The notes below the pieces were generated by a model. The model saw nothing but the letters and a program-made list of their open reading frames with translations, had not been told where the DNA came from and did not search any database. Shown one piece after another: positions 14,345 to 58,335 of a stretch of 64,000 nt of DNA. Source of the stretch: Tubulanus polymorphus (lineage: Eukaryota; Animalia; Nemertea); assembly GCF_964204645.1 (NCBI RefSeq), contig NC_134032.1, forward strand, positions 5,258,275 through 5,322,274. The letters run 5' to 3'. The position numbers and the translations under genes were made by a program. Within the stretch, counting starts at the first letter, position 1; each line of letters starts with the position of its first letter.

Positions 14345-14496
14345 AGTAATAGGGGTTTAGTTGTTCTAGATCAAAGGCCGAAAGGTCGAGCTCATAAAAA
14401 ATGAAAAATAAATTCTCGCACACTCGAATTTATTTTTCATTTTTTACTCACTCAACCTCTCAACCTTTAATCTAGAACAACTTAACCCCTATTACT
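14345..14496 (+). repeat. 152-bp hairpin terminus (short subfamily)
   Basis: AGTAATAGGGGTTTAGTTGTTCTAGA...TCTAGAACAACTTAACCCCTATTACT, then CTTAAAATATT as in the copy F TIR. Confidence 0.9.
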
Positions 14497-14555
14497 CTTA
14501 AAATATTAATCTAATAACTTCTAAAACAAATGTTAATGAAAAATATGTTATTAAA

Positions 14556-27000: not shown

Positions 27001-27711
27001 TATCCTAAGTTCATGGGTAACAGAATATTTGATAAAAATTTAGCTGCAGTTAAAATGAGGAGAACTTCTATGAAATTTAATAAACCAATTCATGTTGGAG
27101 CTACAGTTTTAGAATTATCAAAGTTATTAATGTATGAATTCTATTATAACATATTACAGCCTCATTTTGGAGAAAACCATATAGAAATCTTATATTTTGA
27201 TACAGATTCTTACATATTAAAGATAAAAACTAATAACATAACAGATGATTTAAAAACATTAAAACATGATTTTGATTTCAGTAACTATCCTAAAGATCAT
27301 GAATTGTTTAGCAATGATAATAAAAAGGTGCCCGGTAAATTCAAAGATGAATTAGGAGGTGAAGAAATGATAGAATTTATAGGTATTAGATCTAAAATGT
27401 ATAGTTATAAAACTAAAACTCATGAATCTAAAAAGTTAAAAGGAATTACCAAAAGCGTTGTCGAAAAGATTATTCATTTCAAAGATTACATAAATTGTAT
27501 ATTCAAAGAAGAAGTTAGAAAACACAAGATGAAGATCATGAAATGTTTATTGAAGAGATAGAAAAGGTTAGTTTGAACCCATTTGATGATTAAAGATATA
27601 TTTTAGATGACGGAATTCATACAGTCGCGTATGGTTGCAATTTAGATGAATACTTAAGATTTAAAAGAGAAGAAACAAAAGAGTATGAAATAATGAACAG
27701 GATTATAACAT
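24050..27711 (+). pseudogene. polB: 5'-truncated, fragmented Polinton polB (copy C)
   Basis: ORF pieces with YIDANNLYG, KLMNNAFYGK and YFDTDS; colinear with copy F polB. Confidence 0.93.
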
Positions 27712-28410
27712 CAGCTGTCAACCGTCCTGTGTAGTCGTCACCTGACTTGTGTGTAGGGTGTCATCTGTCAACCGTCATTTAGAGTCATCACCCTAGTATA
27801 TAAGGTGTCGCGTGTCCCTAGCTGTAAAATATGATCTCCAATCAAGGATCTATTTTCATGGAACTTCTTTTAGTTCCATATTACTACGCTTTTATATATT
27901 TCAGCTTGCGCATTAATTCCCCGATTTACTCCAAAAGTAACTCTATACGTTGCACTATAATGTCGTATATCGGACTTGGGCCAACCCCATTTATCGGATC
28001 TTTCGATAATTCAATGACTGTTAAAATAGTGTGCTTTGGTTTGAGGTAAACATACACAACACGATACCGACACGCTCGTAATAGCTCTCTCGTTCCTGGA
28101 GAGCTAAAAATTAGAATAAACCTAAAATCAATGAAATGGAAATTTATTTTTTTACTCACTCATCCTCTCAACCTTTATAGCCTGAACCACTATTATCCCT
28201 ATTACTCTAATATAAATTAGTTATCCACTTAGAATTTGAAGGATTAAAGGGAAATACATATAAATTCAGAACATATTTACCAGATAGATTTCATAGATTA
28301 TCAAGTGAAGATTTAGAAGACTTACGTTCAGGTGATTTCTATTTCATATATAAAGGTAAGAATGAAAAAGGGCACCATGAAATAGATTTCGAATAAAATA
28401 TGTAAAATAA

Positions 28411-29166
28411 ATGGTAGAATTAAAAGAATATAGAATATTTGTTGATTCAAGAAGACTTACAAATTATAAATCACATAATTTATTAGTACAATTAGATAGA
28501 GAATTTAAAAACTGTGTTGATTTAAAATTAGTAAATGTAAGTTTATGTAACTCTTTTTATAATGGATCGGATAAAAGTTTTGATCATAGGTTGTTTATGA
28601 TTCATGATAGAAATATGAATAAATGGTTTCATCTATTTCTAAGACCAGGATTATATAATTTAGAAACATTAGCGCAAGAAATTAATAGAAGAGATTGGTT
28701 AAAAGTGGGCGGATCTGTTGGGTTAAACATTAAATTTAATACAATTGACAGTTCTAATAGAATAAGAATAAAGTTAACTAATGAACAATATAAATTCATA
28801 GTAAGAAAACCATTAGCTAAAATGTTAGGAGTTAATCCAAATAAAGTTTATTCAAATGTTGATACTACAGCAAATTTAATGCCTTTTACGCACTTTTATA
28901 TTTATTGCAATTTAATTGATCCTACAAAAACATTTGAAGTAACTAAAGATACAATTTGTAATTCTGGTTTATTTAATATTTTACCATTGAAGAATGTTAA
29001 ACAATTTGGAACTCAAATAAATTATAATTTAGCTGAGTGTGATTTCAAACCATGCATTCCAACAATTAACAATTTTAAATCAGAAATAAGAAATCATAAT
29101 GGGTATTTAATTGATTTAAATAACTTTCCTGTAATTTATCAATTATTTATAAGATGTAGAGAGTAA
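28411..29166 (+). CDS. Penton homolog (open, 251 aa)
   Basis: Same length and ends as 52692-53447. Confidence 0.75.
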   Translation: MVELKEYRIFVDSRRLTNYKSHNLLVQLDREFKNCVDLKLVNVSLCNSFYNGSDKSFDHRLFMIHDRNMNKWFHLFLRPGLYNLETLAQEINRRDWLKVGGSVGLNIKFNTIDSSNRIRIKLTNEQYKFIVRKPLAKMLGVNPNKVYSNVDTTANLMPFTHFYIYCNLIDPTKTFEVTKDTICNSGLFNILPLKNVKQFGTQINYNLAECDFKPCIPTINNFKSEIRNHNGYLIDLNNFPVIYQLFIRCRE

Positions 29167-29181
29167 TTTTTTGATATATAA

Positions 29182-29541
29182 ATGAATATAACTGTTGGAC
29201 CGGGTATATGTTTTGGATCTGATTTTAAACGTGAGAAAGAAATGAAATTTGATATTAATGATGTAATAACTGATATCAAAAGTATTACATTTTCTAATGA
29301 AACAACATTTGATTTTGAAACAACAATAAATAAACAAACTTTTAATATAGACAAGATTACTGATTTAATAAGAGGGTCATTAAGATTTTATGAATTAGAT
29401 GAAGATTTTATCATCGATTATATAAAAAAAATAATTACTGAAATATATAAAAATCATAAAAGTAGTAATGAAATAAATGTTGAATTAATCATAAATAAGA
29501 TAACTAAATATTTTGAAGATGGTGATTTTTTTGATAAATAA
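29182..29541 (+). CDS. 119-aa protein homolog
   Basis: Colinear with 52316-52675. Confidence 0.72.
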   Translation: MNITVGPGICFGSDFKREKEMKFDINDVITDIKSITFSNETTFDFETTINKQTFNIDKITDLIRGSLRFYELDEDFIIDYIKKIITEIYKNHKSSNEINVELIINKITKYFEDGDFFDK

Positions 29542-29763
29542 ATGGCAGATCAGAAGTGGATAATAACTGGGTTATATAATGGAGCATTACTATCAGTTGG
29601 AACCGTTGGTTATTCAATGGTATTAGAAAAAGTATTTAAAATGGGAAGTGTTAATGTTGATAGATTTGATATAAATGATATCTTAAAATTAACATTAGCA
29701 GTAACTTTGTCTAATTTAACTATTGATTATTTAGAAAAACAGAAATATATTCCTCCTTTATAA
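29542..29763 (+). CDS. 73-aa hydrophobic protein homolog
   Basis: Colinear with 52094-52315. Confidence 0.72.
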   Translation: MADQKWIITGLYNGALLSVGTVGYSMVLEKVFKMGSVNVDRFDINDILKLTLAVTLSNLTIDYLEKQKYIPPL

Positions 29764-30954
29764 ATGCGTAATTTTTTGCTAAATAAATGGCATCTGCAAT
29801 TATAACTATTATAGGGTCAGCAATTGTTTACGCTTTGGCATTTACTGGTGGTGGATAAAACAATATGGATTACATCAATAAAGAATTATATAATCAGAAA
29901 ATTACACATAGAGATTTTCAATCAGTTGATGAAGCTATGAGTTTATATAACGCAATAACAAATAAAGAAAAATTACATCTATATAAACCTAAATTATCGG
30001 ATTATTATACCCCAAGAAAAGAACAACAGAAATATGAAATAATATGGATTTTAGGTGGAACATTTATTATTATATTTGTTGCATATAAATTTACTTATTA
30101 ATTATATATTATTTTTTACTAAATAAATGGATGATAAAGTTGATAATATTGATATTATTCCTCATGATATAAATAAAACTACATTAAAATTATATTTGGA
30201 AAAACAAATATTAGAATTTGAAAGTAATAAGTAATGAAATTGATAATAATGTTTTACCTTCTACATATTATAATGAAATAAAATTAAATTATAGTGAAAA
30301 TAGAAATTATTGTAGTGAAGGTGAATTTTCAAACAGCCCATCAAATTGGAATAACCATATGAATACATTTGTACATATTACTAATGTTATAAAACGCGTT
30401 GGTTTAAGAGAATTTGTAGAACACCCATTTAGAATGTAACAAAGTTTATTTCAAATAAAGAAGTAAATGGTCAAAATTTATATAAAGATTTATTAGGTGA
30501 ATTTGTATCAAAGGAACCTGAACACAGTAAAGATGAATTAGATTTAATTGGTGCTAATAAAATATTAGGATCAAACATTGTAAATAAAATATTAATACTA
30601 ACCCAAACACTAAGAACGAAAATAAGGGAAATATAGTTACATATAAGCATATTGATAATGAAGATTATTTAGATACAGATTGGACAAAACATGAAGTAGT
30701 AACTATTGATGTTGCGGTAGATAGGTTGAAAAAGGATTATAATGAAGAAGCTTATGATGATCCGGTAGATAGGTTTAATAGATTGTTAGAGTCTGATGAT
30801 GAATTGGAGGATGATGATGAAAATGATGTTAATTATCTCACATTCACATAAAATAGTATTTGAAAATGGTATAAAATAATAGTTAATAAAAAAGGGGTTT
30901 TAAGCATTTTGGTATCTAATACGTGTATCTTATGCATAAATGCTTAAAATACCT

Positions 30955-31540
30955 TATTTTATAAATTAATATTCATAAGGAAATGTAGTCTCAAAAGTAA
31001 TTTTGAACCTTTATTATTCTTTGATTTATTCATTTAATTTGATTTTCTTCCAATGATTGTTGCATCGATTTTCTATCTTTATTGTGGAATAATACTAGAA
31101 ATCTTATATCCTCCCAAAAATCTTTAACAATTGAATTATATTTTTGATTTAAACCCCAAGTTGTTATCCCAAAATGTCTACCAGAGAAAGCTAGATAACA
31201 TAACTCACTTTCTTTAACTTTTGAATAATGTAAATTAGCACAATCATCTATGATGAATAATGTATTAGATCCTTTGTAAATATTGAATGCTACTTTTATA
31301 CAATTGTCTAGATTTTCTTTTACTGTTTTAGGATCTAATATAATAAACTTTTTTTATCTTAACTAAATCTCTATTATATGTTTTATTCAATTCATAAGTA
31401 GGACAGAATAATATTATATTATCAAAATGATTTTTATAAATAGTTTCTAATAAATCTAATATGAAATGTGTTTTACCACAGTTGGTTACTCCAGTAACTA
31501 ACATATTATGCGGTTCAAATATAAATAAATCTTTATTCAT
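30955..31540 (-). pseudogene. Packaging ATPase, frameshifted
   Basis: GVTNCGKT; colinear with 45346-45957. Confidence 0.88.
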
Positions 31541-32299
31541 TTATTCTTTTAGTTTTCCAAGATAAAATCCATTCATTAAATTTATCATCATACCCTTTAT
31601 ATTTCACAAGAGAATACTTTTTTCCTTTAAGAGTTTTTGTTTTGTAATACTTTTTCTATTTTGTATTCTATTTCATCTGGATTTGGTACAAGTGATAATT
31701 CTTGTTCATAAAAGTAACCTAATATTTCTTCATCTTTTAAATCTTCTTATTTATAAACAAAAGGTTTAGTTAATATTATCTTTTTAATCTTAAATATTTC
31801 TTCAGTAAAATTTGGAGTATAACCTTTATAAAATGTTTTCGATATTTAGATATTCTAACGTGTTGTCCAATTTAAAATTTTGGTTCTCCAAAATCATGTG
31901 TAACAAACGCTCCGTATAAATTATTCCAAACTATTTCTGAATTATCTTTTCAGTTTTATTTTTGATTGGAATACTCCATGCGTATCTACTGAATATATCT
32001 ATAACATTTAATATCCAAAAATATCGTTTATTGTATTCCTCTAAGTTCTTCATGTAAATTAAATCTGCTTGCCATTGTTGATCGATATATGAAACCATAA
32101 CTTTTCTTGTTAAATAATTTTTATCCATTTTCTTATGGATTTGATACGTTGGTTGATTTTGTAACCATAATCTTAGTTCAATATATTTCATATTTTCTTT
32201 ATCAGATTTAATTTTATCCCATAATTCTGAAATACTAGAATATGATACTTCACTCTCTGGGTTATAATATAAATCTCTTAAATATTTTTATTTTTTCAT
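31533..32299 (-). pseudogene. Integrase with an internal deletion removing the second D and the E
   Basis: SIPIKNKT joined near 31950 to the DNSEIVWNN region. Confidence 0.88.
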
Positions 32300-32305
32300 C
32301 TTCTT

Positions 32306-32650
32306 TTAATCCATTCGTAATAATCTTGGTTTATTTTCAATGGTTTTATCATTTGACTTATCTTCTGGTATAATAGGTTTATCATCGGAATCATTATTAT
32401 TAGATTTGAATTTATATTTATATATTACACCAGAGAATATAATAACTGTTACTAATCCAATTGTAACATATAATTCATTATTACTTCCAGCATTAGAAGA
32501 ATGAGATGGATTACCATTCGAATTAATAACAGATAATTTCTGTGGTTCATTTATATCAGTTAATTTCTTTTTCTTAGCTTTTTTTAATTCTGCAGATCTT
32601 TTAGCCCATTTAATTTGTTTCTCAGATCTAGGCTTAACATCTTCACTCAT
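32306..32650 (-). CDS. 114-aa basic protein with one transmembrane helix
   Basis: LYVTIGLVTVIIFSGVIY; TAAATG start; remnant homolog near 5080-5290. Confidence 0.7.
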   Translation of the reverse strand: MSEDVKPRSEKQIKWAKRSAELKKAKKKKLTDINEPQKLSVINSNGNPSHSSNAGSNNELYVTIGLVTVIIFSGVIYKYKFKSNNNDSDDKPIIPEDKSNDKTIENKPRLLRMD

Positions 32651-33200
32651 TTATTTTAGTTAATTTTTGTACTGATTCAATATCTTCTGATTTATTTTTA
32701 TCTTTGTATTCTATAGGTTTAATGTTAGAAAATGTTATAACTCCAGTAGAAATTAATGTCATAATTCCTCCTAATTGGAATGAAGCGTATCCAAACCATT
32801 TTTGCAGTTCTGTCATAACTAAGTAGTCATTTTTTAAATCAGTATATAATTCATTTTCTTCATCAATTGGTATTATCCGGTTACATAACTTAGAGTAACA
32901 TTTAACTATTCCATCACTTATAGAGTCGTTTATTCTAGCTAATCTAGCTTCTTCATATATTTCGAAATGTTTTATTACTTTATCTGGTTTCATGGCATCT
33001 AGTTCTTGATAAGTTATAATTTTTCCCAAGAAGTTTAGATTTGCCGCCGGCAATCAATAGTTCTAGATGGTGCTTACACGTCAAATAGTATTCATAATCA
33101 ATATTATAATCAATATTATTTTCAATTTTGGTTGGAATATCCTTATTATCACTAATGCCCAAATCATCTAAGATTTTTCAATATCAGATTTCTTTGACAT
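32643..33200 (-). pseudogene. Homolog of the 43802 gene, full-length with C-terminal hydrophobic segment, frameshifted
   Basis: CKHHLELLIAGGK; TYQELDAMKPDKVIK; FQLGGIMTLISTGVITF. Confidence 0.75.
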
Positions 33201-33481
33201 TTATTTTAGCAAAAAAGCGAAAAAAATATTATAAGTATTCTTCAAATGATGCTAATAACTCTTTGGGTTAATACTAGCTAGTTAAAGTTAAAGAATTTTA
33301 GTATTGACTAAGAATACTGGCTAGTTGAAGATATGTAATTTTTATTCAATTCTTATCAAAATATAAAGTATTCTCCTTTTGAAAAGAAATAATAGATTTT
33401 GAATAAAAATATAATAGAATTCATTATATAGTTGAAGTTATTGTTTTTTTTTTATATCTTCTATTTGAGATATACTAATCT

Positions 33482-34153
33482 TTAACCACTCAATAAAGAT
33501 TCAACATATTTTTCATTATTTGGATCAATATTCCATAATTCAATGAATTTCTTTGCATTATCTAATTGATCTATATATAATTTTGAATCTAGTTTGTCAG
33601 ATTTACTCATATTTTTTTTCTTTTCTAAAGGTCTTAGATTCTTCCAATTCCAAAATAACTTCTGATTGTATTCATCACTCATGTCAAATTTCGATATTGG
33701 TAAAACATGATCAATATGAAAATATTCACCATGATTATTCATATTCATTTTATCGTCGAACTGATATATAATCCACGATTTTAAGAATTTATCTGAACAA
33801 TCCAACAAATTTGTTAGTGTAACTGAACGCGTTTCTTTACTGAATAATTTTGATACTTTAGATCACAAACATTTTTTTCATTTTGTAATTAAAATCTGTT
33901 TGATATCTTTCCGTTTGATAATTGTTATTATACACTTTATTATGTTCTGGATTATTTGCCCGAAATTGTTTCATATGTTCTGGATTATTTTTGTAATATT
34001 GTTTATTATATAGTTTACGACAATTTTTGCAATAATAACCTTTACCATATTTAGTCTTTTTATCATTATAATATTCTGATAATGATTTATCTAATTCACA
34101 TTTTGAACATTTCTTATGGTGAATATTGATAGTTTGTGATGTTCTGACTCCAT
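33482..34153 (-). pseudogene. HNH endonuclease homolog
   Basis: GEYFHIDHVLPISKF...NLRPL; TAAATG start at 34153. Confidence 0.82.
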
Positions 34154-34300
34154 TTATAATTCATATTTCAAAATTAAAATTGTTTAACACGTTATAATCC
34201 TGTTCATTATTTCCTTTTCTTTTGTTTCTTCTCTTTTAAATTTTAAGTATTCTTCTAAATTGCAACCATAAGCAACTGTATGAATTCCATCATCTAAAAT

Positions 34301-35144
34301 CAGGGGCGGATCCAGACCGTATTAGCCGTATTGCCCAATACGGTCTAGAATTTTTAAGTGCCCTTCGAAATTTCACCGGCAGTATTTTTGACGGCATTAT
34401 TTCAGCAACCGCTAATTCCGTGTTTGTAATCCGGGCATAATTGTAAAATTAATCGGTATATACTGCTGCCGAGAAAGTGAGGAGAGATAATCATTTTGTA
34501 AAGCCTTTAATCATGATAAATTAAAAAGGGCACTTTCCGTTTGCAAGGGGCACTCATGCTTTAGATGAGGGCACCTTGTCCTTGCCTTTTCAGGGAGGGC
34601 TAAAGGGGCACTCGTACTTTAGAAGAGGGCACTATACGCGGAAAATGTTGGAGAAAAGGGCACTTTTTTGCCTAATTTTTAAAATTTTAGGGGCACTTTT
34701 GGTTTTGAAGATGGCACACGACATAAGGATAAATGTGAAGACGAGGCAATTTTTGCCGATTGTTAACAATGAAGGGGCACTTAGCCGTATTCTGTATAAT
34801 TGTTAAGGGGCACTTTTAAAGATTATAGGGGCACTAGGCGAAGTTGGCGACAACCATGCTTTCATGGGTTCGCCAGCTTCATTTTTTATCCGCATGTGTT
34901 GAAATCTTGTCTTGAATTCGTTTATTCTGGATTGCTCTGCTAGCCTCTAGAAGCCCTCTAAAAGCCTTTAAATGGTACCATATTTTCAAAGTTTTCTGGG
35001 GGTGGGCCCCCAGACCCCTCCCTATAAGGACTTCGCGCCTTCGGCGCTCGCATTGACCTGGATACTGGGTGTGCCCTAAGATCTGAAGGGTGCCCTTAAA
35101 TTTCCTTCCAATACTGTCTACCCATCCCCCTGGATCCGCCCCTG
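34301..35144. mobile_element. 844-bp non-autonomous DNA transposon (MITE)
   Basis: 15-bp TIR CAGGGGCGGATCCAG / CTGGATCCGCCCCTG; AAAAT duplicated relative to the empty site in copy F; many internal GGGCAC motifs. Confidence 0.92.
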
Positions 35145-36124
35145 AAAATATATCTTTTATCATCAAATGGGTTTAAACTTACCTTTTCAATTTCTTCAAT
35201 AATCATCTCGTGGTACTCAGATCTTAAACATTTCATCTTGTGTTTTCTAACTTCTTCATTGAATATACAATTGATGTAATCTTTGAAATGAATATTCTTT
35301 TCTACTCCGCTTTTGGTAATTCCTTTCAATTTCTTTGATTCATGAGTTTTAGTTTAATATGAATACATTTTAGATCGAATACCTATGAATTCTATCATTT
35401 CTTCACCTCCAATTTTTAGGATAATTACTGAAATCAAAATGATGTTTTAATCTTTTTAAATCATCTGTTATGTTATTAGTTTTTATCTTTAATATGTAAC
35501 TGTCTGTATCAAAATATAAGATTTCTATATGCTTTTCTCCAAGATGAGGTTGTAATAATAAATTTAGGGTATGTTTGTAAATGTCTTATTCTTTTACCAT
35601 TACTAACTAACTCAATATCATTTCTATTTCTAACAGTTTCACAAGTCTTACCAGAGAATGCATTATTCATTAACTTGAAGAAATCTTTCTCAAAATCAGT
35701 TTTAGCTTTAGTTCTCTGTTAAAGTCTATATATTTTTCCAACCATTTAGATTGACTAAATGAAATATATGTATGTACTTTTTTAGAATCATTCCTTGATT
35801 CAAATAGAATTTTAACATTCTATAATGTACTACATAATTATATTTATCTTCCTGAGTTACCATTAACTTTTCTGTATGAATATGATTTTCGGGTTTAATT
35901 CTTTTTTGTTAATTTGATAATTCTTCATGCGTAACAGTTTTATGTTCGGGACATTATGCTAGATTTCTAGATTTAAATTTCATGTTTTCAGGATATTCCA
36001 AATCTACAACAAAGAAGTAACCAGTATCTGAATCATCTGCAATATCTAGAATTCTTTTCTTCCAATCAAATTTATCATTATTTTCAGGTTGTAGAACTTC
36101 ACTTATTTCAACTGCTCCATAAGG

Positions 36125-37027
36125 CTTATTGAGGTACTTCTGAGGGATTTGCAGTTTGCTGACGATGCCGCCTTGGTCACCCACAGGAAAGAAGATCTGC
36201 AGCAACTCATGGACCGTTTTGCCCAGGCTTGCATAGACTTTGGGCTAACTGTCAGCATCAAGAAGACAAATATCCTTTGTCAAAACACCGATGACACACC
36301 AGAAATAGTCATCCACGACTGTGTGCTTGAAGTTGTCCACCAGTTCACCTATTTGGGTTCCACTAACTCTGATAAGCTGTCCTTGAAGTGCGAGATAGAT
36401 AGAAGAATTGGAATGGCATCATCGACATTCTCTCGTTTAACCAGTCGCGTCTGGTCCAACAACAAGCTCACAACGAGGACAAAGATAGCTGTCTACAATA
36501 CCTGTATTGTCAGTACCCTTCTCTACTGCAGCGAGACATGGACAACCTATGCTAAAGATGAAAGGCGACTAAATGCCTTCCACATGAGATGCCTCCGCAG
36601 AATTTTAGGTATTTCATGGCGTGACAGAATTACAAATGCTGCAGTCCTTGAACAGGCGGGTATTTCCAGTATGTACTCTCTGCTTAGACAGCGCAGACTC
36701 CGTTGTTTTGGTCATGTCCGGCGCATGGAAGACGCTCGCATCCCAAAAGATGTGCTGTATGGTGAGCTCACGCTCGGAAAACGATCCAGAGGCAGAGCTC
36801 ATCTACGCTACAAGGACAGCTGTAAACGTGACATGAAAGCTATTGACATCGATGTGAACATGTGGGAGGAGCTCGCAAAAGATAGATGTGGATAGCACCA
36901 GACTGTCAAGTCACATCTGCTCATAGGCGACGAGAAACTAGCAACTAGATGTACCCGTGCCAGGGACGTGAGAGGTCGACGATGTAATTCCATAGTCTGT
37001 TAAGACTGAAAGGGGCCTACTTACCTA
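36125..37027 (+). mobile_element. 5'-truncated RTE-clade LINE (RT C-terminal part, ORF 36149-36895)
   Basis: QFADD, FTYLGS, LLYCSETW, FHMRCLRRILGISW; 3' end CCATAGTC...GACTGAA...CCTACTTACCTACTT. Confidence 0.9.
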
Positions 37028-39029
37028 CTTGCTTGATGAATAAATGAGCATCACACCCTGATAAATTATGAAATATTACTGGAACAAAGTTAATTTTCTT
37101 AGCTTGTAAGTTACAATTCTCATGCACTACGCCTCTAAACTTTCCATTCAAATGATCATGGTCGCTAACTTTTTTATAATTAAATGTCTTTTCACAATAA
37201 TAACATTTATCAGCAAACTCAAATTCTTCTTTGTCTTCTACTGTCATAATTATTTCTTTATTTTTATTTAACAATTTATTAAATTTTATTTCATATTCAA
37301 TTAATAAGTCTCAAAAATGATTGATAACATTTTCATTTCTGTAATTATAATATTCACTTTTAATTAGTTCTGGATAATCTGATTTTATATATAACCTGAA
37401 AGCTGCAGCACTTTGATGAATCTTTTTAATATTATTTGTTATTAGAGGATCTGAATAATCAATTATATCATTTTCATTAGAATTTAATTTCTTTCTTTTA
37501 TAATATATTTCTTTTCTATCTTGATCAGTTAATTCCTTATTTAATGATTCAAAATCTCCATATATTACAAATGGTACTTTATTCTTGTAATTATATTTTT
37601 TGAATTCTAAAACTTTATCCTCTTCATTTGGTAAAACTATTTTACAATAATCATGATTTTCACATAATGATTTATGATTTAATAATAATGCCCTTTCAGT
37701 TCTGAATTTAGTTATACATTTTCTACATAGATATATTTTATTATCAAAATCATTTTCTGATTTGAAAAATAAATCAATTCTTTTAATCCACATATAATGT
37801 TTCTCATAATATAATATATCTATAATATCATTTGAATCATAATCTTTTGATAAATACAAAGGTTCTAATGTATAATGTTTTATATTATTACCTTTTGTTT
37901 TTGGTAATTTGACTAAATCAAATACATTTATCTTTATATTATTATCTCTTTCTATTTTTGGGATATTTTTAATTCTAACAGGATAATTATCTATCTATTA
38001 ATTATTTTCAAATAGTTTATAATGTGTTAATCTAAAACTATGTGTAATATCTTCTGTTGGATGTAAGCAACTTATAATTGACCATAGAAAACATTTATCA
38101 TCAGAATTTTGTACATTTATTACAGCATTAGTTTTAAATGGTAATTTAATATAACTTGATCCATTAATATCTGGTTCTTTATAATATGATAAATTATTTT
38201 CATCAATTGGTTTTGATTTAGTTAATTTATTATATTTTGTATTGTATACATAGAAAGTCGAAAATATTATTTCATCAAATATTAAACCTGATCCTTCAAA
38301 ATATTTCTCTTCTCTCTTATTTTTTATTTCATTATAACATTTGTCTAATTTATCATCTATATGTTGTTTTGAAATAATATGTTGTGAACGAGAATTTATA
38401 TTATATATTGGTTAATCTTCAGATTTTAAAAATTTAACTTTAGAAGATATACTTATTTTAGAGTATTCAACATCTGTAATCATTCTTATAATATTTTTCA
38501 TATTTTCTAAATGTTTTTTATTTTCTTCTAATGTTTTACCTTTATGAAATTTAAATTCAATAGCAGCTGGTCCAATATCACTTTAAAATGCTTCGGTTAT
38601 TCCAATATCTTTATTATCTAATGAATAAATATAATTTCTAACATTTTCCATATATGATTTCTTATTATTTAGAGTATCTTTTATTCTTTTAATTGTCTTC
38701 GGTTTATTTTTATCATTATCAAAATAATCTTCACCTAAAATATCATTATTCATATTTCTAATATGACTTTTAGATTTTAAATGTTCTTTATAATATCTTT
38801 TATCACTGAATGATTGATTACATGTATCACATTTCTTTTTCATGCTTTAATTCATCTAATTTAGTTTCTAATATATCATCGTTATATTCTAACTTTAATT
38901 TATTCTCTAAATGTGTTTTAGTTTTATTGTGTCTTGCTTTTTGAGATTTATCTATATCAATTTTACATGTTGAACAGTAGTACTTATTTGCTTCCATTTT
39001 AATATCAAATTTTTTATTAAAATTGAACA

Positions 39030-39405
39030 TAACACTTACCTCTCAACGCATCCCGCCGCCACGTGTGAGTCCCACCACGTGTGAGTCCCGCCTATTTATA
39101 CTACTCAACAGTGGGGAAAACCCAGCTGCGTGTTGAGGCTTGTAAATTATGAGGCTTGTGATTGGCTAGAGTAATGGGGAATACTCAACTGTGATTGGAT
39201 AGAGTAATATTCAACTGTGATTGGCTAGAGTAATGGGGAATACTCAACTGTGATTGGCTGGAAAAACTCAACTGTGATTGGCTAAAGTAATACTCAACTG
39301 TGATTGGCTAGTGTAGTTTTCTAGATGGATGGTTCTAGAATCAACATGTATTACGCAACATTCAACGTGTTGAGGCTTAATTTATGAGACTTGTGATTAT
39401 ATAGA
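39030..39405 (-). promoter_or_regulatory. CCAAT-box array, TATA box and splice-donor-like site upstream of copy D polB
   Basis: Six GTGATTGG (CCAATCAC on minus) at about 39158-39307; TATAAATA at 39100-39093; GAGGTAAGT at 39042-39034. Confidence 0.6.
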
Positions 39406-39527
39406 AGTAATAGGGTCTTAGTTGTTCTGTATCAAAGGTTGAATGGTCGAAAAATAAATGCGAGTGTGCGAGAATTTATTTTTCGACCCTTCGACCTTTG
39501 GTATAGAACAACTAAAACCCTATTACT
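39406..39527 (-). repeat. 122-bp hairpin right terminus of copy D
   Basis: AGTAATAGGGTCTTAGTTGTTCT...AGAACAACTAAAACCCTATTACT. Confidence 0.9.
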
Positions 39528-40225
39528 GGTGTATCAGCATTTACAGAATCGTGATACAATATTTCAATATTATCAACACCTAAATTTCCAAATTCAGGTT
39601 GTAATGTCTCATAATAAAACTTGTACATTAAAAATTTTGATAATTCTAAAACTGTTGCACCAATGAAAACTGGTTTATTGAATTTCATTTTAGTACGTTT
39701 CATTTTAACTGCAGCTAAATTCCTTGTTGTTTTGGATAACTTTAGAAATGCCTAATTCTTTCAGCATGAGTAACTTATTCTATGTCACTTTTATTTCTTA
39801 TATTTTCACAAGTCTTACCGTAGAGAGCATTATTCATTAACTTGAAGAAATTTTTTTCAAAATCGGTTATTGCTACTGTGCGTTGTTTTGTATTGAATTC
39901 TATATATTCTAGATATAATTCTAGATAACCATTTAGAAATTGTTTAAATTGAATATATCTATGTACTTTTTTAAGTATCATTCACTGTTCTGAATAGAAT
40001 TTTTAAGTTTTATAATGTACTACATAATTATATTTATTTTCTTGTGTTAACATTAATTTTCAGTAGACAGCATTTTCTTTGGTTTTATCTTTTTCTGATA
40101 CTCACCTAATTCTTCATCAATTACGTTTTTATGTTCCGGGCAATATGGATAATTTCTAGATTTATATCTAATTCCATCGGGATATTCTAAATCAATTATA
40201 AAACAATATCAAATTTTGGTTTTGT
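39528..40225 (-). pseudogene. polB: Diverged polB fragment (copy E), cut by the terminus of copy D
   Basis: KLMNNALYGKTCENIR; FNKPVFIGATVLELSK; ends EILYHDSVNADTP. Confidence 0.85.
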
Positions 40226-41442
40226 CAATTTTCTGATGTTGAGACTCTCCTGAATGAACGGAAAATTCAGCCCTACTCATAAGTGGCGATGGCAGATGCG
40301 ACTCGGCGAAGTATGTTCTATACACAGTGATTGATTTATTGAAGAATAAAATCCTTTGCATGTAACTTGTACAAGTAAGATCTTGATAAAGTTTTATGAT
40401 TTCGTAAAGTGTTTGGTATCATGAAAATAGCCCGGAAAAACTTATCAAATAATTCTTTGAGGCTGAACTGAAGATTATTCGTACTACGTTAATGAGCATG
40501 AATAAGACATCAGGTTCTGTAGAAAATCATTTTATCTTTGTTTTGAAATGATTCTTCATTATCTTCTGATGACTCTGGACAACTCTTCTGTGTAACTCAA
40601 TTTAGGTCTGCATTAAGTGGACAAGAAAGTAAACCTGCTTTTTATCCACCAGTAGCTTCAACCCATTACTTGCTTGGAAAACAATGGAATCAAAGTCCTT
40701 TGAAATTACAGGAGGTGATTTGGCACATGAAGATGAATACACTGATGGAGATGGAGCTTCTATGTCATCACTGTTAGAGATTAAGGACCCTTTTCCAAAT
40801 AAACACTGTTCTTTTTCAAGTCATGAAAATAGTTATGGCGTATGGTATGAGTGTGTGCGTTGTGGAGGTCAGGATGATGTGGACGATTTGGTAGTCAAAG
40901 TAAAGTTTCCTGAAGGATAGTAATCTTGTAACACTTTTGAAAGATATGTGATATGCGACACACGCACTTAACGCAGCTCCTTTCACAGTTCTTATTTTTG
41001 CCCACTAAGAACCTGAAAGATAAGAATGCAGAGCTCAAGAAATGAGATTCTTCCGGGGAGGGTGGATCCGAATAGACATAAACAAAATTATATAGGCCTT
41101 TGTATGGAGCTAGGCCTACTAGACGTAAATGTGATAGTAGGCTAAGCTAGTGCAAATGGTTTTCAATGGCCTAAAAGGGATGAAACCAAACGAAATTTTC
41201 TTGAACGGTTTGAGTTTCCGGTTATAAAAACCCTGAAATGAAACAAATTGAGTCGTATTTCTAGAATTGTTTGGGTGGATATGGAGCACCAAAATACATC
41301 AATAGGGTTGGAAGATTAACTCCATACCTACGCCCATGATGCCGACCTGTAAACCAAGTGGAAATTTGTTTGAAATGCACCCAAATTATGATAATTCCTG
41401 TTTTTCCAACTACGTTTTTCACTGTTAATGCGTTTATTAGCC

Positions 41443-41904
41443 AGTAATAGGGGTAATGGGCTTTCATACCAAAGGTCGAACGGTCGAGCCCATTAAAAAA
41501 CAAAACATTAAAAGTAATTAAAAACTATAATATATTTTCATAACCGCGTGCATTTTATATTAAAACTAAATATTTATTCTAAGATATCAATAATTTAAAA
41601 AGCATATTGTAAATAAATCAATTGGTCGCTCCGCTTCGCTCCGCTCCGCTCCGCGACCAATTGATTTATTTACAATACACAAATTCATATAATCAAATAT
41701 ATTCAAATAATAATAATTATTCTATTATTCAACTGAAATGCACGCGGTTATGAAAATATATTATAGTTTTAAATTACTTTTAATATTTGTTTTTAATGAA
41801 CTCGACCATTCAACCTTTGATATGAAAGCCCATTACCCCTATTACTCTTAAAATATTCATATAAATGAATAACATTTAAATCATTGAACTTCTAAAATCA
41901 ATTT
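41443..41904 (+). repeat. Left TIR of copy F; 41443-41846 is a self-complementary hairpin
   Basis: Reverse complement of 57888-58335; starts AGTAATAGGGGTAATGGGCTTTCATA, and TATGAAAGCCCATTACCCCTATTACT ends at 41846. Confidence 0.95.
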
Positions 41905-41926
41905 AGTAAAAAAATATGTATAATAA

Positions 41927-42580
41927 ATGGAACCAGAACAACCACAAACTATCAATATTACAAATAACACTGGTGTCATAAATATATACTACAAGAAATG
42001 TTCTAAATGTGAATTAGATAAATTAGCTTTAACAGAATTGAGTAAGCGTAAGATTAGCAAAGATGGTTTTCAATATTGCTGTAAAACTTGTTTTAAACTA
42101 TATACCAAACAATACCGAGAAGATAATATAGAACATTTTAATTATTATATGGCAGAATATATGAGAGAAAGATATCAAACAGATCTTAATTTTAGATTAA
42201 AACAATGCTTAAGATCTAGATTAACACAATTATTCAACAAAGAAACACATTCAGAAACACTATCTAATTTATTGGGTTGTACAAATGAATTTCTCAAATC
42301 ATGGATAATATATCAATTCGACGATAAAATGAATATAGATAATTATGGTGAATACTTTCATATTGATCATGTGTTGCCGATTTCTAAATTTAACATGAAT
42401 GATGAATACAATAAAAAACTTATTTGGGGTTGGAGAAATTTAAGGCCTCTTGAAAAGAAAGAAAACATAATTAAATCTAATAAACTAGATATACAGTTAT
42501 ATTTAGATCAACTGGATAAAGCAAAGACATTTGTTGAATTATGGAACTCACCACATAATGAAAAATACGTTGAATGTTAA
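41927..42580 (+). CDS. HNH endonuclease with N-terminal CxxC zinc motifs, NCLDV-like
   Basis: KKCSKC...CCKTC; LRSRL...LLGC...FDDKMN..NYGEYFHIDHVLP...NLRPL...N. Confidence 0.85.
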   Translation: MEPEQPQTINITNNTGVINIYYKKCSKCELDKLALTELSKRKISKDGFQYCCKTCFKLYTKQYREDNIEHFNYYMAEYMRERYQTDLNFRLKQCLRSRLTQLFNKETHSETLSNLLGCTNEFLKSWIIYQFDDKMNIDNYGEYFHIDHVLPISKFNMNDEYNKKLIWGWRNLRPLEKKENIIKSNKLDIQLYLDQLDKAKTFVELWNSPHNEKYVEC

Positions 42581-43539
42581 ACGCTTAGAAAACCGGTTTC
42601 TCTCGATCTATGTCAAACCGCCTGTATGTAATTGTATTAGGTTGTTTACAAAAGACATCTGTGCCGTATTTCATATTCAGTTGAATAGGGCGCACCTCAT
42701 TTGAATATTGATCGAACGTGCTATTTCAGTTGAAAAGGATTAATCAATTATATTACAAAAGAAGGAACATCTGTTGCACCAGACGGTGTTTAGCTAGTGA
42801 ATAACTACCAGTTATAAACGCGCAGCACATAAGCATAGGAACGTATTGGATATTCTCTCTTAAAACACGGTTTACAGTTCTAAATCTAAATGTAAGTAAA
42901 TATATTATGAAGTAGGGAAACCTTTAAACATATTTAAGTACAGTAATTCATTTTCACGACATCTTTTAGATTAAAATGGAATACAAAGATGAACCAGAAA
43001 TTCTAAGCCAACCATCGGAAAAGGAACTAATGCTGCTGGATAGTGAAACACAGGAATCAATAGAAATGGAGGATGAAACTCTCGTAACACACTGAAGGTC
43101 TTTAAGATATCAAAAAATGTAATCTCGATTGTATATATCTGTTTTAATATTGTATTGATTACTGTTAACTGTGTATTGCGCAATAACCGGTCCGATTGAA
43201 CCGCTTTTCTATTGTTCTCCATTGTTCTATTATTGATCGTTGTTAATGGCGGCGGTTGCTCAATATTGATTGGTTACAGTTCTATGTTTGAATGTTGTAG
43301 TTAACAGAATAAAAATATAACTGTGTATTGCGCAATAACCGGTCCGATTGGACCGCATTTCTATTGTTCTCCATTGTTCTATTATCGATCGCTAAAATTT
43401 GTATAATAAATATATCTGTTTATGAAATAATATTTCCACCAGTCGTTTCTTTGAATTTATTTTCAGTTGAGGATTTGATATCGAGTATCCGAAATGACTT
43501 ATCTGAACAGTTATAATTACTGCTCCTAATAGATAGACA
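42575..43539. mobile_element. ~0.96-kb foreign insertion inside copy F (unclassified, possibly LTR-derived)
   Basis: Absent from the homologous HNH-downstream region of copy D (33400-33500); higher GC; internal ~73-bp direct repeat (about 43167-43239 and 43318-43391); TG...CA edges but no TSD. Confidence 0.6.
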
Positions 43540-43801
43540 ATAGTAGTCAGATATCAAATAGAATTTAAATAAAATATAATAAAAAAACAATAACTTCAAC
43601 TAGCTAGTGAATTCTATTATATTTTTAATACTTTCTTTTCAAAAAGAGAATACTTTATATTTTGAATAGATTCAAATAGAAAATCTTTAAATTCAAATAG
43701 CTAGTATCAGTAGTCAATACTAGAGTTCTTTAACTTTAACTATCTAGTATCATTTGAAGAATACTTATAATATTTTTTTTTGCTTTTTTCCTCTAATATA
43801 A

Positions 43802-44264
43802 ATGTCAAAGAAATCGAGTAAGAATAATATTGATATTGAAAAGACATTAGATGATTTAGGTATAAGTGATAATAAAGATACAGTTGTTTCTAATTCTATT
43901 CAAGTTAATAACAATATAGATTATGAATACTATTTATATTGTAAGCATCATCTAGAACTATTGATTGCCGGTGGAAAAACTAAAGAGTTTTTAAATAGAA
44001 TCATTACTTATCAAGAACTAGATGCTATGAAACCCGATAAAGTAATAAAATATTTTAAGATTTATGAAGAAGCTAGATTAGCTAGAATAAATGATTCTAT
44101 TTCAGATGGTATTGTCAAATGTTATTCTAAGTTATGTAACCAGTTAATACCAATTGATGATGAAAATAAATTATATAGTGATTTGATAATAAACCTTTCA
44201 TACCAGAAAATAAGTCAAATCATAAAGTCATTGAAAGTAAATCTAAATTATTATTAATGGATTA
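43802..44264 (+). pseudogene. Conserved Polinton hypothetical gene fused by deletion to the tail of the next small membrane-protein gene
   Basis: 5' part matches 32643-33200; after about 44184 an alternative frame reads DNKPFIPENKSN...LLLMD, the C-terminus of the 114-aa ORF at 32306-32650. Confidence 0.8.
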
Positions 44265-44271
44265 AAATAAG

Positions 44272-45353
44272 ATGAAAAAAGAACAATATTTAAGAGATTT
44301 ATATTATAACCCAGAAAGTGAAGTATCATATTCTAACGTTTCAGAATTATGGAATAAAATTAAATCTGATAATAGTGATTTAAAATATGGTGAATTGAAA
44401 TCATGGTTACAAAATCAACCAACATATCAAATCCACAAGAAAATGGATAAAACTTATTTAACAAGAAAAGTTATGGTTCCATATATCGATCAACAATGGC
44501 AAGCAGATTTAATTGACATGAAGAACTTAGAAGAATACAACAAAGGATATTTCTGGATACTGAATGTTATAGACATATTCAGTCGATACGCATGGTCAAT
44601 TCCAATCAAAAATAAAACTGGAATAGAAGTGACAAATGCTTTTAAATCTATATTTAAAGAAGCTATTCCAGATAAGATACAATTTGATGAAGGTAAGGAA
44701 TTTTATAACAAACATTTCAAAAAACTATTATCTGATAACGATGTAAAATATTTTTCAACACACTCAGATAAAAAAGCATCTATTGTAGAAAGATTTAATA
44801 AAACATTGAAAACTAGAATGTGGAAATATCTTACTGCTAATGAAACATACAAATATATCGATGTGTTAGATGATTTGGTGAAAGGTTATAATAATTCTAA
44901 ACATAGTTCTATAAATATGAAACCTATACAAGCTAGAAAAGAAGATAATTCGGAAATAATTTGGAATAATTTATATGGAGCGTTTGTTACACATGATTTC
45001 GGCGAACCTAGATTCAAAATTGGACAACATGTTAGAATATCTAAATATAGAAAAACATTTTATAAAGGTTATACTCCAAATTTTACTGAAGAAATATTCA
45101 AGATTAAAAAGATAATATTAACTAAACCTTTTGTTTATAAATTAGAAGATTTAATAGATGAAGAAATATTAGGTTATTTCTATGAACAAGAATTATCACT
45201 TGTACCAAACCCAGATGAAATAGAATACAAAATAGAAAAAGTATTGAAAAAACTCTTAAAGGAAAAAAGTATTCTTTGGTGAAATATAAAGGATATGATG
45301 ATAAATTTAATGAATGGATTTTATCTAGTAAAATTAAAAGAATAAATGAATAA
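44272..45353 (+). CDS. Retroviral-like DDE integrase; chromodomain-like C-terminus displaced by a frameshift near 45250
   Basis: QWQADL, QFDEGKEF, ASIVERFNKT triad; YKIEKVL / KYSLVKYKGYDDKFNEWI split across two frames. Confidence 0.93.
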
Positions 45354-45957
45354 AGATTTATTTATATTTGAACCGCATAATATGTTAATAACTGGAGTAA
45401 CCAATTGTGGTAAAACACATTTCATATTAGACTTGTTAGAAACTATTTATAAGAATCATTTTGATAATATAATATTATTTTGTCCTACTTATGAAATGAA
45501 TAAAACATATAATAGAGATATAGTTAAGATGAAAAAGTTTATTATATTAGATCCTAAAACAGTAAAAGAAAATTTGAATAATTGTATAAAAATAGAAATT
45601 GATACTTATAAAGGATCAAATACATTATTCATTATAGATGATTGCGCAAATTTACATGATTCAAAAGTGAGAGAAAGTGAGTTATGTTATTTAGCTTTCT
45701 CCGGGAGACATTTTGGGATAACAACTTGGGTTTTAAATCAAAAATATAATTCAATTGTTAAAGACTTTAGAGAAAACATTAGATTTCTAGTTTTATTTTA
45801 TAACAAAGATAAAAAATCTATGCAACAATCATTGGAAGAAAATCAAATTATACCTACTGAATTACATGATGAATATATGAATAAATTAAAGAATAATAAA
45901 GGTCCAAAATTATTACTGAGACTACAATTTCCCTATGAATATAAATTTATAAAATAA
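45346..45957 (+). CDS. A32/FtsK-like DNA packaging ATPase
   Basis: Walker A GVTNCGKT, Walker B LFIIDD, A32-type GRH..I.TW.L.Q motif. Confidence 0.93.
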   Translation: MNKDLFIFEPHNMLITGVTNCGKTHFILDLLETIYKNHFDNIILFCPTYEMNKTYNRDIVKMKKFIILDPKTVKENLNNCIKIEIDTYKGSNTLFIIDDCANLHDSKVRESELCYLAFSGRHFGITTWVLNQKYNSIVKDFRENIRFLVLFYNKDKKSMQQSLEENQIIPTELHDEYMNKLKNNKGPKLLLRLQFPYEYKFIK

Positions 45958-45979
45958 CTATTTATATATCTATGTATTA

Positions 45980-46060
45980 GAAACCCTAATACCTGGTACC
46001 CCATTAGATACCCTAATACCTGATACCCTAATACCTGATACCATACCTGATACCTTAAAT
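45980..46060. repeat. Short ATACC(C/T)-rich tandem repeat between convergent gene blocks
   Basis: ATACCCTAATACCTG reiterated, followed by CCCCCTTTTTT. Confidence 0.7.
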
Positions 46061-46116
46061 ACTTAAAACCCCCTTTTTTATTTACTATTATTTTATACAA
46101 TTTTCAACCTTTATTA

Positions 46117-46953
46117 TTATTTGATTGTTAGATAATTAATTTCTGAATCACTTTCACTATCAGACCCTAACAATTTATTCAAATGCTCTACTGTATCTTC
46201 ATAAATAATTGGTTTATTGATATACTTATTAGGCATCTCAACTATATCTTTATTTTCTGATTTATGTTTCATAGAATCTTTATTATCAAAGTTATCATTA
46301 TTTTCTACTTTATGTTTCATAGAATCTTTATTAGTGTTTGCTCCTAATATTTCATTTACAGTGTTTGATTCTAATATTTCATTAGCATCGGTTAGATCTA
46401 ATTCATCTTTATTAGGTGTTGCTAATAATAAATCTTTATATAATTCTTTACCATTTACTTTTTGATTTGAAACAAATTTTGTAACATATCTAAATGGGTG
46501 TTCTATAAATTCTTTTAAACCAACACGTTCTATTACATTAGTAATATGTGAATTTGTATTCATATGTTTATTCCAATTTGATGGAGCGTTTGAAAATTCA
46601 CCTTTACAATAATTACAATAATTTCTATTTTTACTAACATTTAATATTATTGCATTATTATACGTAGAAGGTATTACATTATTAGATGTAGTAGGTATTA
46701 CATTATTAGATGTAGTAGGTATTACTGTAGTAGGTATTACTGTAGTAGGTATTACATTATTATCAATTACATTACTTAAATTATCAACAACACCACTTTT
46801 ATTATTATCGATTTCTATTAGTTTAGTTTTATAAATTTTGAAAATAGGATCAAATATCAAAGCTATATTACAAGGTATTACATAATATAAACCATCATTA
46901 TTTTCATGTGTATCGATGTATGGAATATGTTTATATACTTTACCTCCTTCCAT
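46117..46953 (-). CDS. Zinc-finger protein with internal peptide repeats
   Basis: CNYC-x12-H-x5-H finger; VIPTT repeats; DNKDSMKHK-type duplicate; acidic tail. Confidence 0.7.
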   Translation of the reverse strand: MEGGKVYKHIPYIDTHENNDGLYYVIPCNIALIFDPIFKIYKTKLIEIDNNKSGVVDNLSNVIDNNVIPTTVIPTTVIPTTSNNVIPTTSNNVIPSTYNNAIILNVSKNRNYCNYCKGEFSNAPSNWNKHMNTNSHITNVIERVGLKEFIEHPFRYVTKFVSNQKVNGKELYKDLLLATPNKDELDLTDANEILESNTVNEILGANTNKDSMKHKVENNDNFDNKDSMKHKSENKDIVEMPNKYINKPIIYEDTVEHLNKLLGSDSESDSEINYLTIK

Positions 46954-46985
46954 TTATTATATATATTTTTATTAAAGTTAAAATT

Positions 46986-48233: not shown

Positions 48234-48257
48234 TTATTTAACAAAAAAATTGATTAT

Positions 48258-49736: not shown

Positions 49737-49752
49737 TTACATAATAAAAAAA

Positions 49753-51176: not shown

Positions 51177-51192
51177 TTATATAATTAAAAAA

Positions 51193-51627: not shown

Positions 51628-51646
51628 TTATTTAGCAAAAAAATAA

Positions 51647-53815: not shown

Positions 53816-53844
53816 TTTAATAACATATTTTTATTAAAATTTGA

Positions 53845-56800: not shown

Positions 56801-57865
56801 TCTTTCTATTTTTGGGATGTTTTTAATTCTAACAGGATACTTATCTATCTTATAATTATTTTCAAATGGTTTATAATGAGTTAATCTAAAACTATGTGTA
56901 ATATCTTCTGTTGGATGTAAACAACTTATTATAGCCCATAGAAAACATTTATCATCTTCATTTTGTACGTTTATAACAGCATTAGTTTTAAATGGTAGTT
57001 TGATATAACTCGATGCTTCAATATCTGGTTCTTTATAATATGATACATTATTTTCATCGATTGGTTTTGATTTAGTTAACTTATTATATTTTGTGTTATA
57101 AACATGTAAAGTCATAAATATTATTTCATCAAATATTAAACCAGATCCTTCAAAATATTTCTCTTCTATTTTAGTTTTTACTTCATTATAACATTTATCT
57201 AATTTATCATCTATATGTTGTTTAGATATAATATGTTGTGAATGAGAATTTATATTATATATTGGTTCATCTTCAGATTTTATAAACTTTACTTTAGAAG
57301 ATATACTTATTTTAGGATATTCAACATCTGTAATTATTTTTATTATTTCTTTCATATTTTCTAAATGTTTTTTATTTTCTTCTAATGTTTTACCTTTATG
57401 AAATTTAAACTCGATAGCTGCTGGGCCAATATCACTTTTAAATGCTTCGGTTATCTCTATATCTTTTTTATTATCTAATGAATTAATATAATTTCTTACA
57501 TCTTCCATGTATGGTCTTTTATTGTTTAATTTATTTTTTATGCTTTTAATTGTCTTCTGTTTCTTATCGTTATCATTATCAAAATAATCTTCACCTAAAA
57601 TATCATTATTCTTATTTCTAATATGACTTATAGATTTTAAATGTTCTTTATAATATCTTTTATCACTGAATGATTGATTACATGTATCACATTTGTATGT
57701 TTCTTTTTCATTCTTTAATTCTTCTAATTTAGTTTCTAATATATCATCTTTATATTCTAGTTTCAATTTATTCTCTAAATGTGTTTTAGTTTTATTGTGT
57801 CTTGCTTTTTGGGATTTATCTATGTTGATATTACATGTTGGACAGTAGTACTTATTTGCTTCCAT
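53845..57865 (-). pseudogene. polB: Protein-primed family B DNA polymerase (~1340 aa) with two small frameshifting deletions
   Basis: YIDANNLYG, KLMNNAFYGK, YFDTDS; N-terminal C2H2 fingers; DDKCFLW...NHYMWI (vOTU-like); DHDHLNGKFRGAAHENCN (EndoVII-like); deletions near 56155 and 55920 relative to copy C. Confidence 0.95.
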
Positions 57866-57887
57866 TTTAATACTAAATTTTTTATTA

Positions 57888-58335
57888 AAATTGATTTTAG
57901 AAGTTCAATGATTTAAATGTTATTCATTTATATGAATATTTTAAGAGTAATAGGGGTAATGGGTTTTCATATCAAAGGTTGAATGGTCGAGTTCATTAAT
58001 AACAAAACATTAAAAGTAATTTAAAACTATAATATATTTTCATAACCGCGTGCATTTCAGTTGAATAATAGAATAATTATTATCATTTGAATATATTTGA
58101 TTATATGAATTTGTGTATTGTAAATAAATCAATTGGTCGCGGAGCGGAGCGACCAATTGATTTATTTACAATATGCTTTTTAAATTATTGATATCTTAGA
58201 ATAAATATTTAGTTTTAATATAAAATGCACGCGGTTATGAAAATATATTATAGTTTTTAATTACTTTTAATGATTTGTTTTTTAATGGGCTCGACCGTTC
58301 GACCTTTGGTATGAAAGCCCATTACCCCTATTACT
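57888..58335 (-). repeat. Right TIR of copy F; 57946-58335 is a self-complementary hairpin
   Basis: Near-identical inverted copy of the left TIR; loop has 2 TCCGC units versus 5 on the left. Confidence 0.95.

Follow-up and report, generated by a model that had tools for sequence, protein, structure and literature searches.

The DNA analyzed here is a 64,000-nt stretch from the nemertean Tubulanus polymorphus (RefSeq assembly GCF_964204645.1, contig NC_134032.1, positions 5,258,275 to 5,322,274 of the forward strand), referred to below as the window and numbered from its first nucleotide. It is AT-rich and holds a nest of decayed Polinton/Maverick copies, A to F. Two of these copies, D and F, carry their genes in two different orders: relative to the DNA polymerase gene polB, the rest of the element is inverted, and the breakpoints fall in a short motif that lies upstream of several genes. 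Definitions are taken from the pertinent sections of PMC11131425 and PMC8502044.

Copy F (41443-58335) provides the reference for gene content and order. From the left, a terminal inverted repeat (TIR) leads into an arm of HNH, o151, integrase and ATPase genes. This arm converges on a second one that runs from o278 and the major capsid protein (MCP) gene outward to o251, a gene for a 117-amino-acid (aa) protein, polB, and the other TIR. The initial annotation of the window had read the same order, and gene calls, the alignment of the TIRs, and the 6-bp target site duplication (TSD) TTAGCC on both sides of the copy bear it out. The left TIR (41443..41935, plus strand) comprises a 404-nt hairpin (41443-41846), an inner flank and a copy of the motif, and it extends into the start of the HNH gene. 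The right TIR (57857..58335, minus strand, placed by alignment) includes the motif preceding polB. The TIRs are 94% identical, and their lengths lie within the 100-1500 bp range given for Polintons, as does the TSD within that of 5-8 bp. Pfam profiles identify a protein-primed polB (PF03175, E 3.6e-13), whose named homologues are mainly from molluscs, sponges and arthropods, a retroviral-like integrase (PF00665, E 1.2e-9) and an A32 packaging ATPase (PF04665, E 1.5e-12). Elsewhere in polB they find only zinc fingers and Endonuclease_7; an OTU-like N-terminal domain is not among these profile-level matches. The HNH protein is HNH/endonuclease-VII-like (PHROGs phrog_1035, E 2e-13). The model of the MCP, at a predicted local distance difference test score of 58, is a double jelly-roll that matches the MCPs of SGIV, PBCV-1 and mavirus (best E 5e-11). 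No match for o251 was found in Pfam, PHROGs or PDB sequences; by resemblance, it is a candidate for the minor capsid protein typical of Polintons. The 117-aa protein (53462-53815) is likely an OB-fold single-strand DNA-binding protein (SSB), judging from weak Foldseek matches of its predicted fold to OB-fold and LEF-3/RMI/SSB entries (best E 0.015 in PDB, 0.0023 in BFVD). Its nearest named Atlas cluster, phi29 SSB (0.82), is a lead only. Among the 17 open reading frames (ORFs) of F, the Pfam scan found no tyrosine or serine recombinase and no protease family, although a divergent protease could escape it. An adenovirus-like protease is typical of Polintons but not universal among them. Because a protease was not detected, and an adenain protease is the criterion for adintoviruses in the relevant section of PMC8502044, copy F is filed on its sequence as a Polinton and not as an adintovirus.

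Copy D has the other order. With F as the query, the opposite strand of F (53646→41912) is matched by D 28212-34168, whereas the match between D 34148-39026 and F polB is in the same orientation. Relative to polB, the block from the HNH gene to the 117-aa gene is opposite to that of F; the inversion is real. The two copies are 77-94% identical by gene (6-23% difference). Between the polB stop codon (34186-34184) and the HNH start codon (34153) there are 30 nt, the spacing reported in the initial annotation, and this spacer (34154..34183, minus strand) is a copy of the A-rich motif, with the same polB-HNH adjacency in the metagenome loci L006 and L007 described below. On its two sides are a broken HNH/endonuclease-VII-like gene (33494..34153, minus strand, found by tblastn to F HNH) and a protein-primed polB that deletions and two insertions have disrupted (34184..38997, minus strand). 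Farther left come decayed ATPase, integrase, 114-aa ORF and o151 sequences (30957..33203, minus strand), and then a decayed structural arm with fragments of o251, o119, o73, o140 and o144/o278, from which the MCP region is deleted (28411..30850, plus strand). The ATPase-to-o151 region retains ~440 bp that is found in L006 and absent from F; these bases, which complete o151 and make up the greater part of the ORF after it, are missing from F at 44184-44185 and also kept in copy A.

The two ends of D required some revision of the order first proposed for it. The supposed left TIR (28140..28206, plus strand, by alignment and a fold test) amounts to just one arm, the inner one, of a terminal hairpin of the type found in copy B; the outer arm is absent. 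It is 82% identical to B 14440-14510, carries a TIR motif match at 28168-28205, and is B-like, unlike D's own right hairpin; it folds no hairpin (z -1.6, versus z -15.7 for the right hairpin). D's second (left) switch point is lost because a deletion joins this half-hairpin to about codon 58 of the 117-aa gene: the 3' part of the gene remains (28212..28396, plus strand, tblastn, aa 58-117), and the 5' part and upstream motif are deleted. The inverted block of the proposed order stands, but its left boundary does not. On the right, the proposed neighbors polB and TIR are both present, the latter as a 122-nt terminal hairpin of a short class that aligns with the hairpin of B (39406..39527), but they are separated by ~380 bp of D-specific subterminal sequence that is not in F (39027..39405, minus strand). 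Likeness to F stops at the 5' edge of the A-rich motif preceding polB (38998..39026, minus strand). The D-specific segment consists in part of 26-bp repeats that bear CCAAT, includes TATA-like and CACGTG words, and has a splice-donor-like word just ahead of the motif; it matches nothing in loci L001-L104. It may represent a promoter of host type or an inserted sequence. A sigma-70 scan of 38990-39540, a search unsuited to a eukaryotic element, found nothing. The hexamer at D's right flank has no partner within 27701-28212, so no TSD can be assigned.

Copy B contributes an intact version of the junction that D has lost. As the initial annotation had it, a TIR stands directly before the 117-aa gene: a 152-nt terminal hairpin (14345..14496) is followed by inner-TIR sequence and the A-rich motif (together 14497..14555, plus strand) and then by an intact start codon at 14556. 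The TIR-117 junction is intact in L007 as well. Loss of polB from an F-type copy would not by itself yield B, because its hairpin belongs to the short class, with D's right hairpin, and not to F's 404-nt type. Each terminal repeat of the family consists of a long hairpin, imperfectly paired and between 122 and 404 nt in size, with the tip sequence inverted at both bounds, so that one element end holds two tip copies (41443-41846, 57946-58335, 14345-14496, 39406-39527, and L007 1-120). It had been suggested that gene order tracks hairpin size. The pairing fits, with short hairpins accompanying TIR-117 in B, D and, from its half-hairpin, probably L007, and the long hairpin accompanying F, but very few copies are involved, and by gene identity B and D do not group together. 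F as the derived form would fit this pairing.

What do the junctions have in common? When the 32-nt upstream sequences of 14 genes of F are compared, five (HNH, o278, o251, 117 and pol) fall into an A-rich class. The class is likely a promoter, to judge from its position. A T-rich class precedes the MCP gene and several small genes, and the integrase and ATPase genes fit neither class well. In the T-rich class, which covers o151 (loosely), MCP, o418, o144, o140, o73 and o119 (43802-52675), a run of T precedes TAAAT(AAAT)G; this class presumably resembles the late promoters of large DNA viruses. The mutual scores of the HNH, 117 and pol upstream sequences are matched by at most 0.06% of 32-mers sampled from F. 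The proposal that the switch points lie in a shared motif is upheld to this extent, beyond chance, with two qualifications: D's left motif is lost, and the motif also precedes o278, o251 and pol. In F, the reciprocal switch points are the motif before the HNH gene (41895..41926, plus strand) and the 29-nt spacer between the polB stop and the 117-aa gene, which is itself the motif (53816..53844, minus strand). The four junction types, TIR-117, polB-HNH, TIR-HNH and polB-117, form a reciprocal set: upstream of the motif core, the sequence tracks the neighbor (TIR flank or polB stop), and downstream, it tracks the gene. The exchange point can therefore be placed within ~20-25 nt, the length of the imperfect homology between the switch points. 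All architecture junction ends lie within 32 nt before the ATG of an A-rich-class gene, three of the positions having been set by eye from the motif alignment, and the five motifs make up ~1% of F. None of the 30 decay breakpoint ends in copies A, B, C and D falls inside an A-rich motif. With a colinear inverted block and reciprocal junctions, the idea that the two orders are related by a single inversion, bounded on either side by the shared motif, is supported.

Relatives in metagenomes extend the comparison. They were scanned with a polB alignment over 22 of 64 parts, and 80 of 477 confirmed loci were kept. In L006 and L007, polB is followed by the HNH gene across a 16-nt spacer, and L006 continues with o151, a 129-aa ORF and the integrase gene. 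By blastn, L006 3946-5653 aligns to D 34300-32717 straight over the polB-HNH junction, so this junction is not peculiar to D, and the refuting case named in the initial annotation does not hold. L007 begins with a half-hairpin bearing the family TIR motif and continues with the 117-aa gene, polB and the HNH gene, a third order that the initial annotation did not include. The L006/L007 lineage is ~80% identical in polB to F, C and D alike, and it lies outside the F/C/D clade in a polB tree (clade support 99/99; ten rows, midpoint root). The ~440-bp segment missing from F is, as noted, common to D and L006. The more distant L024 (43% polymerase identity) also has polB followed by HNH. L011 1-4939 (54%) has another local order, with HNH converging on polB and then MCP. 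In 74 loci, the sequence extends 400 bp or more past polB; the next gene in these is HNH in three cases in the same direction and one converging, integrase in 14, and unrecognized in 56. The 117-aa gene, which is detectable only in close relatives, follows polB in none of the 74. The polB-HNH adjacency is native, and on sequence comparison with one close and two distant lineages, it is probably older than F's order. Other scans added little: viral contigs yielded no relative with the F 117-aa protein or an MCP alignment and only distant elements or giant-virus loci with HNH and polB, and genome contigs yielded only distant polB. A scan of viral contigs for the TIR motif gave 120 loci, none matching F proteins, and these were rejected as chance matches.

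Sequencing reads offer a view of the family beyond the assembled copies. Logan contigs were available from four runs (X1-X4) of two samples in one study, and the best run contains 0.38 of the words. Among the 15 joints listed out of 185, a joint between 41910 and 53824 on opposite strands is found in all four runs, and a joint between 53828 and 57878, which skips polB, is found in three of the four; all four positions are inside the motif. We infer that the first joint represents TIR-117 and not polB-HNH, because its depths do not occur among the contigs over the polB stop (the three in X2 already add up to the full 1643.6). The summed depth of the two joints, bearing in mind that contig depth is not copy number, is at least ~5-7% of that at the polB stop in X1-X3 (318/4443, 83/1644 and 27/556) and at least 5/30 in X4. 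Contigs at the polB stop in X2 and X3, where they are long enough to show what follows, run into the 117-aa gene. In X1 and X4, several contigs pass from the polB stop into other gene starts, none of them assigned. D's own junction has no close match among the contig pieces listed, and X2-X4 have no cover over 34140-34169, a gap from which nothing follows.

How could one order have given rise to the other? We lean toward the view, as somewhat more probable than its negation, that D and F represent two orders of one Polinton family, related by an inversion of all but polB with its ends in a 20-25-nt likely-promoter motif, and that a rare microhomology exchange occurred and was then inherited, the D order probably being the older. 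The exchange would take place between two inward-facing copies of the motif and would invert the block between them. It would most likely have been a template switch or strand annealing event in protein-primed strand-displacement replication, by extension from the established biology of protein-primed polymerases, and not a site-specific recombinase reaction. An exchange within a promoter motif would leave each gene with an upstream signal and both TIRs intact, which likely explains why the products could survive and spread. The polarity would be from a D-like order to the F order. A further inversion of this type, between the pol and o251 motifs, would turn the D order into that of L007, if its unseen far end has o251 beside the TIR. 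The initial annotation had left a choice between a fixed subfamily difference and ongoing isomerization. The former is favored because D and F have diverged, no recombinase was found, the stretch of homology is both short and imperfect, and most contigs have a single order; isomerization is not borne out.

Several observations weigh against this scenario. First, there is a single D-type copy, its left switch point is deleted, and its two ends have different hairpin types. Second, the spacers between genes are almost entirely motif, and the breakpoints could have come to lie there merely because selection retains intact genes, with no guidance by homology. Third, D's 30-nt polB-HNH spacer is nearer to F's polB-117 spacer than to L007's 16-nt one, and a back-inversion would fit this resemblance to the long form too. 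Fourth, the ratio of D-F divergence to outgroup distance is 0.75 for HNH and 0.58 for o151, and 0.27-0.49 for five other stretches; this excess, beyond what would be expected of a clean flip, suggests that exchange between subfamilies was probably also involved. Fifth, B is no closer to D than to F, with 79, 85 and 116 unique differences in F, D and B, respectively, among 1442 sites. Sixth, L006, L007 and L010 are 99.6-99.8% identical to one another and so count as one data point for polarity. Finally, only one of the contigs listed spans the polB-HNH spacer, and it reaches just 10 nt into the HNH gene (X1 record 3, 93 nt, 16 differences).

There is evidence on both sides of a different explanation, in which polB moved and the block was never inverted. 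TIR expansion, or recombination between two elements, would copy the TIR-polB end to the other side, and one polB would then be deleted between direct motif copies. Direct copies of the motif bracket polB in F with the top score (19) among the pol, 117 and HNH pairs, the F TIR extends through the motif into the ATG, and the read joint at 53828/57878 is an exact motif-to-motif skip of polB. Elements may have exchanged sequence, as the excess divergence of HNH and o151 indicates. Genes within TIRs are described in butterfly polintons in the accessible part of 10.1101/2025.02.07.637071, and replicases bracketed by repeats in that of 10.64898/2026.10.13.758929. However, this route needs two events, no element with two polB genes is present in the window or in loci L001-L104, and the hairpin of B is not F-type. 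We regard it as unlikely, but as the main rival. Like the third order of L007, it is an addition to the first reading of the window.

A broader extension of the inversion scenario is that animal Polintons shuffle end-proximal genes as promoter-gene cassettes, with the A-rich promoter as the recombination joint, repeated moves of polB, the ssDNA-binding gene and the HNH nuclease gene from one genome end to the other, and at least three orders (L007, D and F) that possibly interconvert in replication, with the HNH nuclease as the trigger. The sequence comparisons make this conceivable, but we hold it to be doubtful. A related proposal is a recurrent, low-frequency flip in active elements, for example by panhandle-assisted template switching, possibly begun by a cut of the HNH nuclease. 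Such a flip could account for three orders joined by the same kind of step, for a D spacer that appears derived from a longer form of the motif, for motif-to-motif joints in both samples, and for the failure of B and D to form a clade. The length and imperfection of the homology (20-25 nt), the lack of a recombinase among the 17 F ORFs in Pfam, the 77-94% identity of D and F, and the dominance of polB-117 in contigs at the polB stop all count against it and make it improbable. Least probable of all is that D is a post-insertion composite, in which a deletion fused copies that were nested or in tandem, or a mis-assembly, that B is a polB deletion, and that only one order was ever functional here: the density of decayed copies, the mismatched ends of D with no TSD partner, the mid-gene MCP/integrase join of copy A, which reveals that composites occur in the window, and the tandem-deletion mosaics proposed in the part of 10.64898/2026.10.13.758929 consulted speak for it, but polB, HNH, o151, an ORF and integrase follow one another in L006/L007 as well, aligned over the junction, both genes are whole at the D join with a 30-nt motif spacer, unlike all 30 decay ends, and a second, diverged contig in X1 spans the spacer, although D's left end alone could still derive from another copy.

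Programmed invertible segments, such as the G segment of phage Mu with Gin, Hin, and the shufflons, and the isomers of herpesviruses have inward-facing inverted repeats, and their flip alters gene adjacency. D and F differ from these systems in that no recombinase was detected, the repeats are short and imperfect, the forms are diverged and not isogenic, and their abundances, as far as contig depth indicates, appear strongly unequal. In the portions of PMC10748475 and PMC8097293 that describe them, animal Polintons/Mavericks resemble F in their size (~17 kb), TIRs near 490 bp, 6-bp TSD, protein-primed polB, rve integrase, A32 ATPase, double-jelly-roll MCP, and two inward-facing gene arms. Unlike those elements as described there, no protease was detected here, each TIR is a long hairpin, the end motif is AGTAAT and not (AGT)2, and the order varies between copies in one genome that are ~90% identical, with breakpoints at a shared upstream motif. 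The layout of vertebrate Mavericks is described in PMC8097293 as conserved, except that modules are oriented differently in some species (cane toad, Xenopus), and replacement of polB is known in nematodes from passages of PMC10748475 and the preprint 10.1101/2023.08.22.554363. The replication modules of Polisuviricotina, as far as they are set out in the consulted text of 10.64898/2026.10.13.758929, are similar in that polB is movable, bracketed by repeats, and beside a putative homing endonuclease. They differ in that replicase classes are gained or swapped there, whereas here the same polB changes ends and its brackets are ~25-nt motifs common to other genes; the word "promoter" does not occur in that text. 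EMALE virophage types likewise have upstream motifs common to genes and an order that varies between types, but in the sections of PMC8547959 concerned, they are syntenic within a type and are virophages of protists. Gene-order variation among Polintons and their relatives is known, and the consulted portions of these papers give no nucleotide-level mechanism. "Inversion" occurs zero times in the available text of PMC10748475, PMC11131425, PMC8547959, PMC8097293, 10.64898/2026.10.13.758929 and 10.1101/2023.08.22.554363. A literature search, with supplementary gene maps outside its scope, found no report of inversion isomers, or of motif-based inversion, within one Polinton family.

The remainder of the window holds further traces of the same family and of other sequences. 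Copy A (14-5297) is 74-87% identical to F; its MCP gene is fused mid-gene to the integrase gene on the same strand, followed by ATPase, o151 and the next ORF. On its sequence it may be either a rearranged fossil or a fourth order. Tandem arrays of 114-bp and 73-bp units lie beside it (5674-6116 and 4153-4375). Fragment E (39535-40226), which adjoins D's right hairpin, is a divergent piece of polB, 73-77% identical to F, C and D, and falls outside the group of F/C/D and L007 in the polB tree. Insertion of D into E was considered and ruled out, since the remainder of E is absent to the left of D. Also ruled out was a single F-type element made of C and the left part of D, as a hairpin arm and ~430 bp of other sequence lie between them. 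Of the two insertions in D polB, that at 34301-35144 (844 bp) has short inverted ends and is like a miniature inverted-repeat transposable element; that at 36125-37029 is GC-rich, with a 228-aa frame that resembles, by eye, the C-terminal part of the reverse transcriptase of a long interspersed nuclear element (with a weak DUF6451 match). Outside the elements, a 298-aa frame at 62105-63001 has a weak GDSL-lipase-like match in Pfam.

What are the implications for Polinton biology? If the difference between D and F reflects a one-off inversion, its importance is modest. The upstream sequences define two candidate promoter classes, A-rich (pol, 117, HNH, o251 and o278) and T-rich (MCP and several small genes), in a group of elements whose transcription is poorly known. 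Reciprocal junctions that are preserved among close relatives, all of them in a promoter-like motif, may provide a countable model of rearrangement that spares genes and ends. The same model bears on how polB becomes a movable unit.

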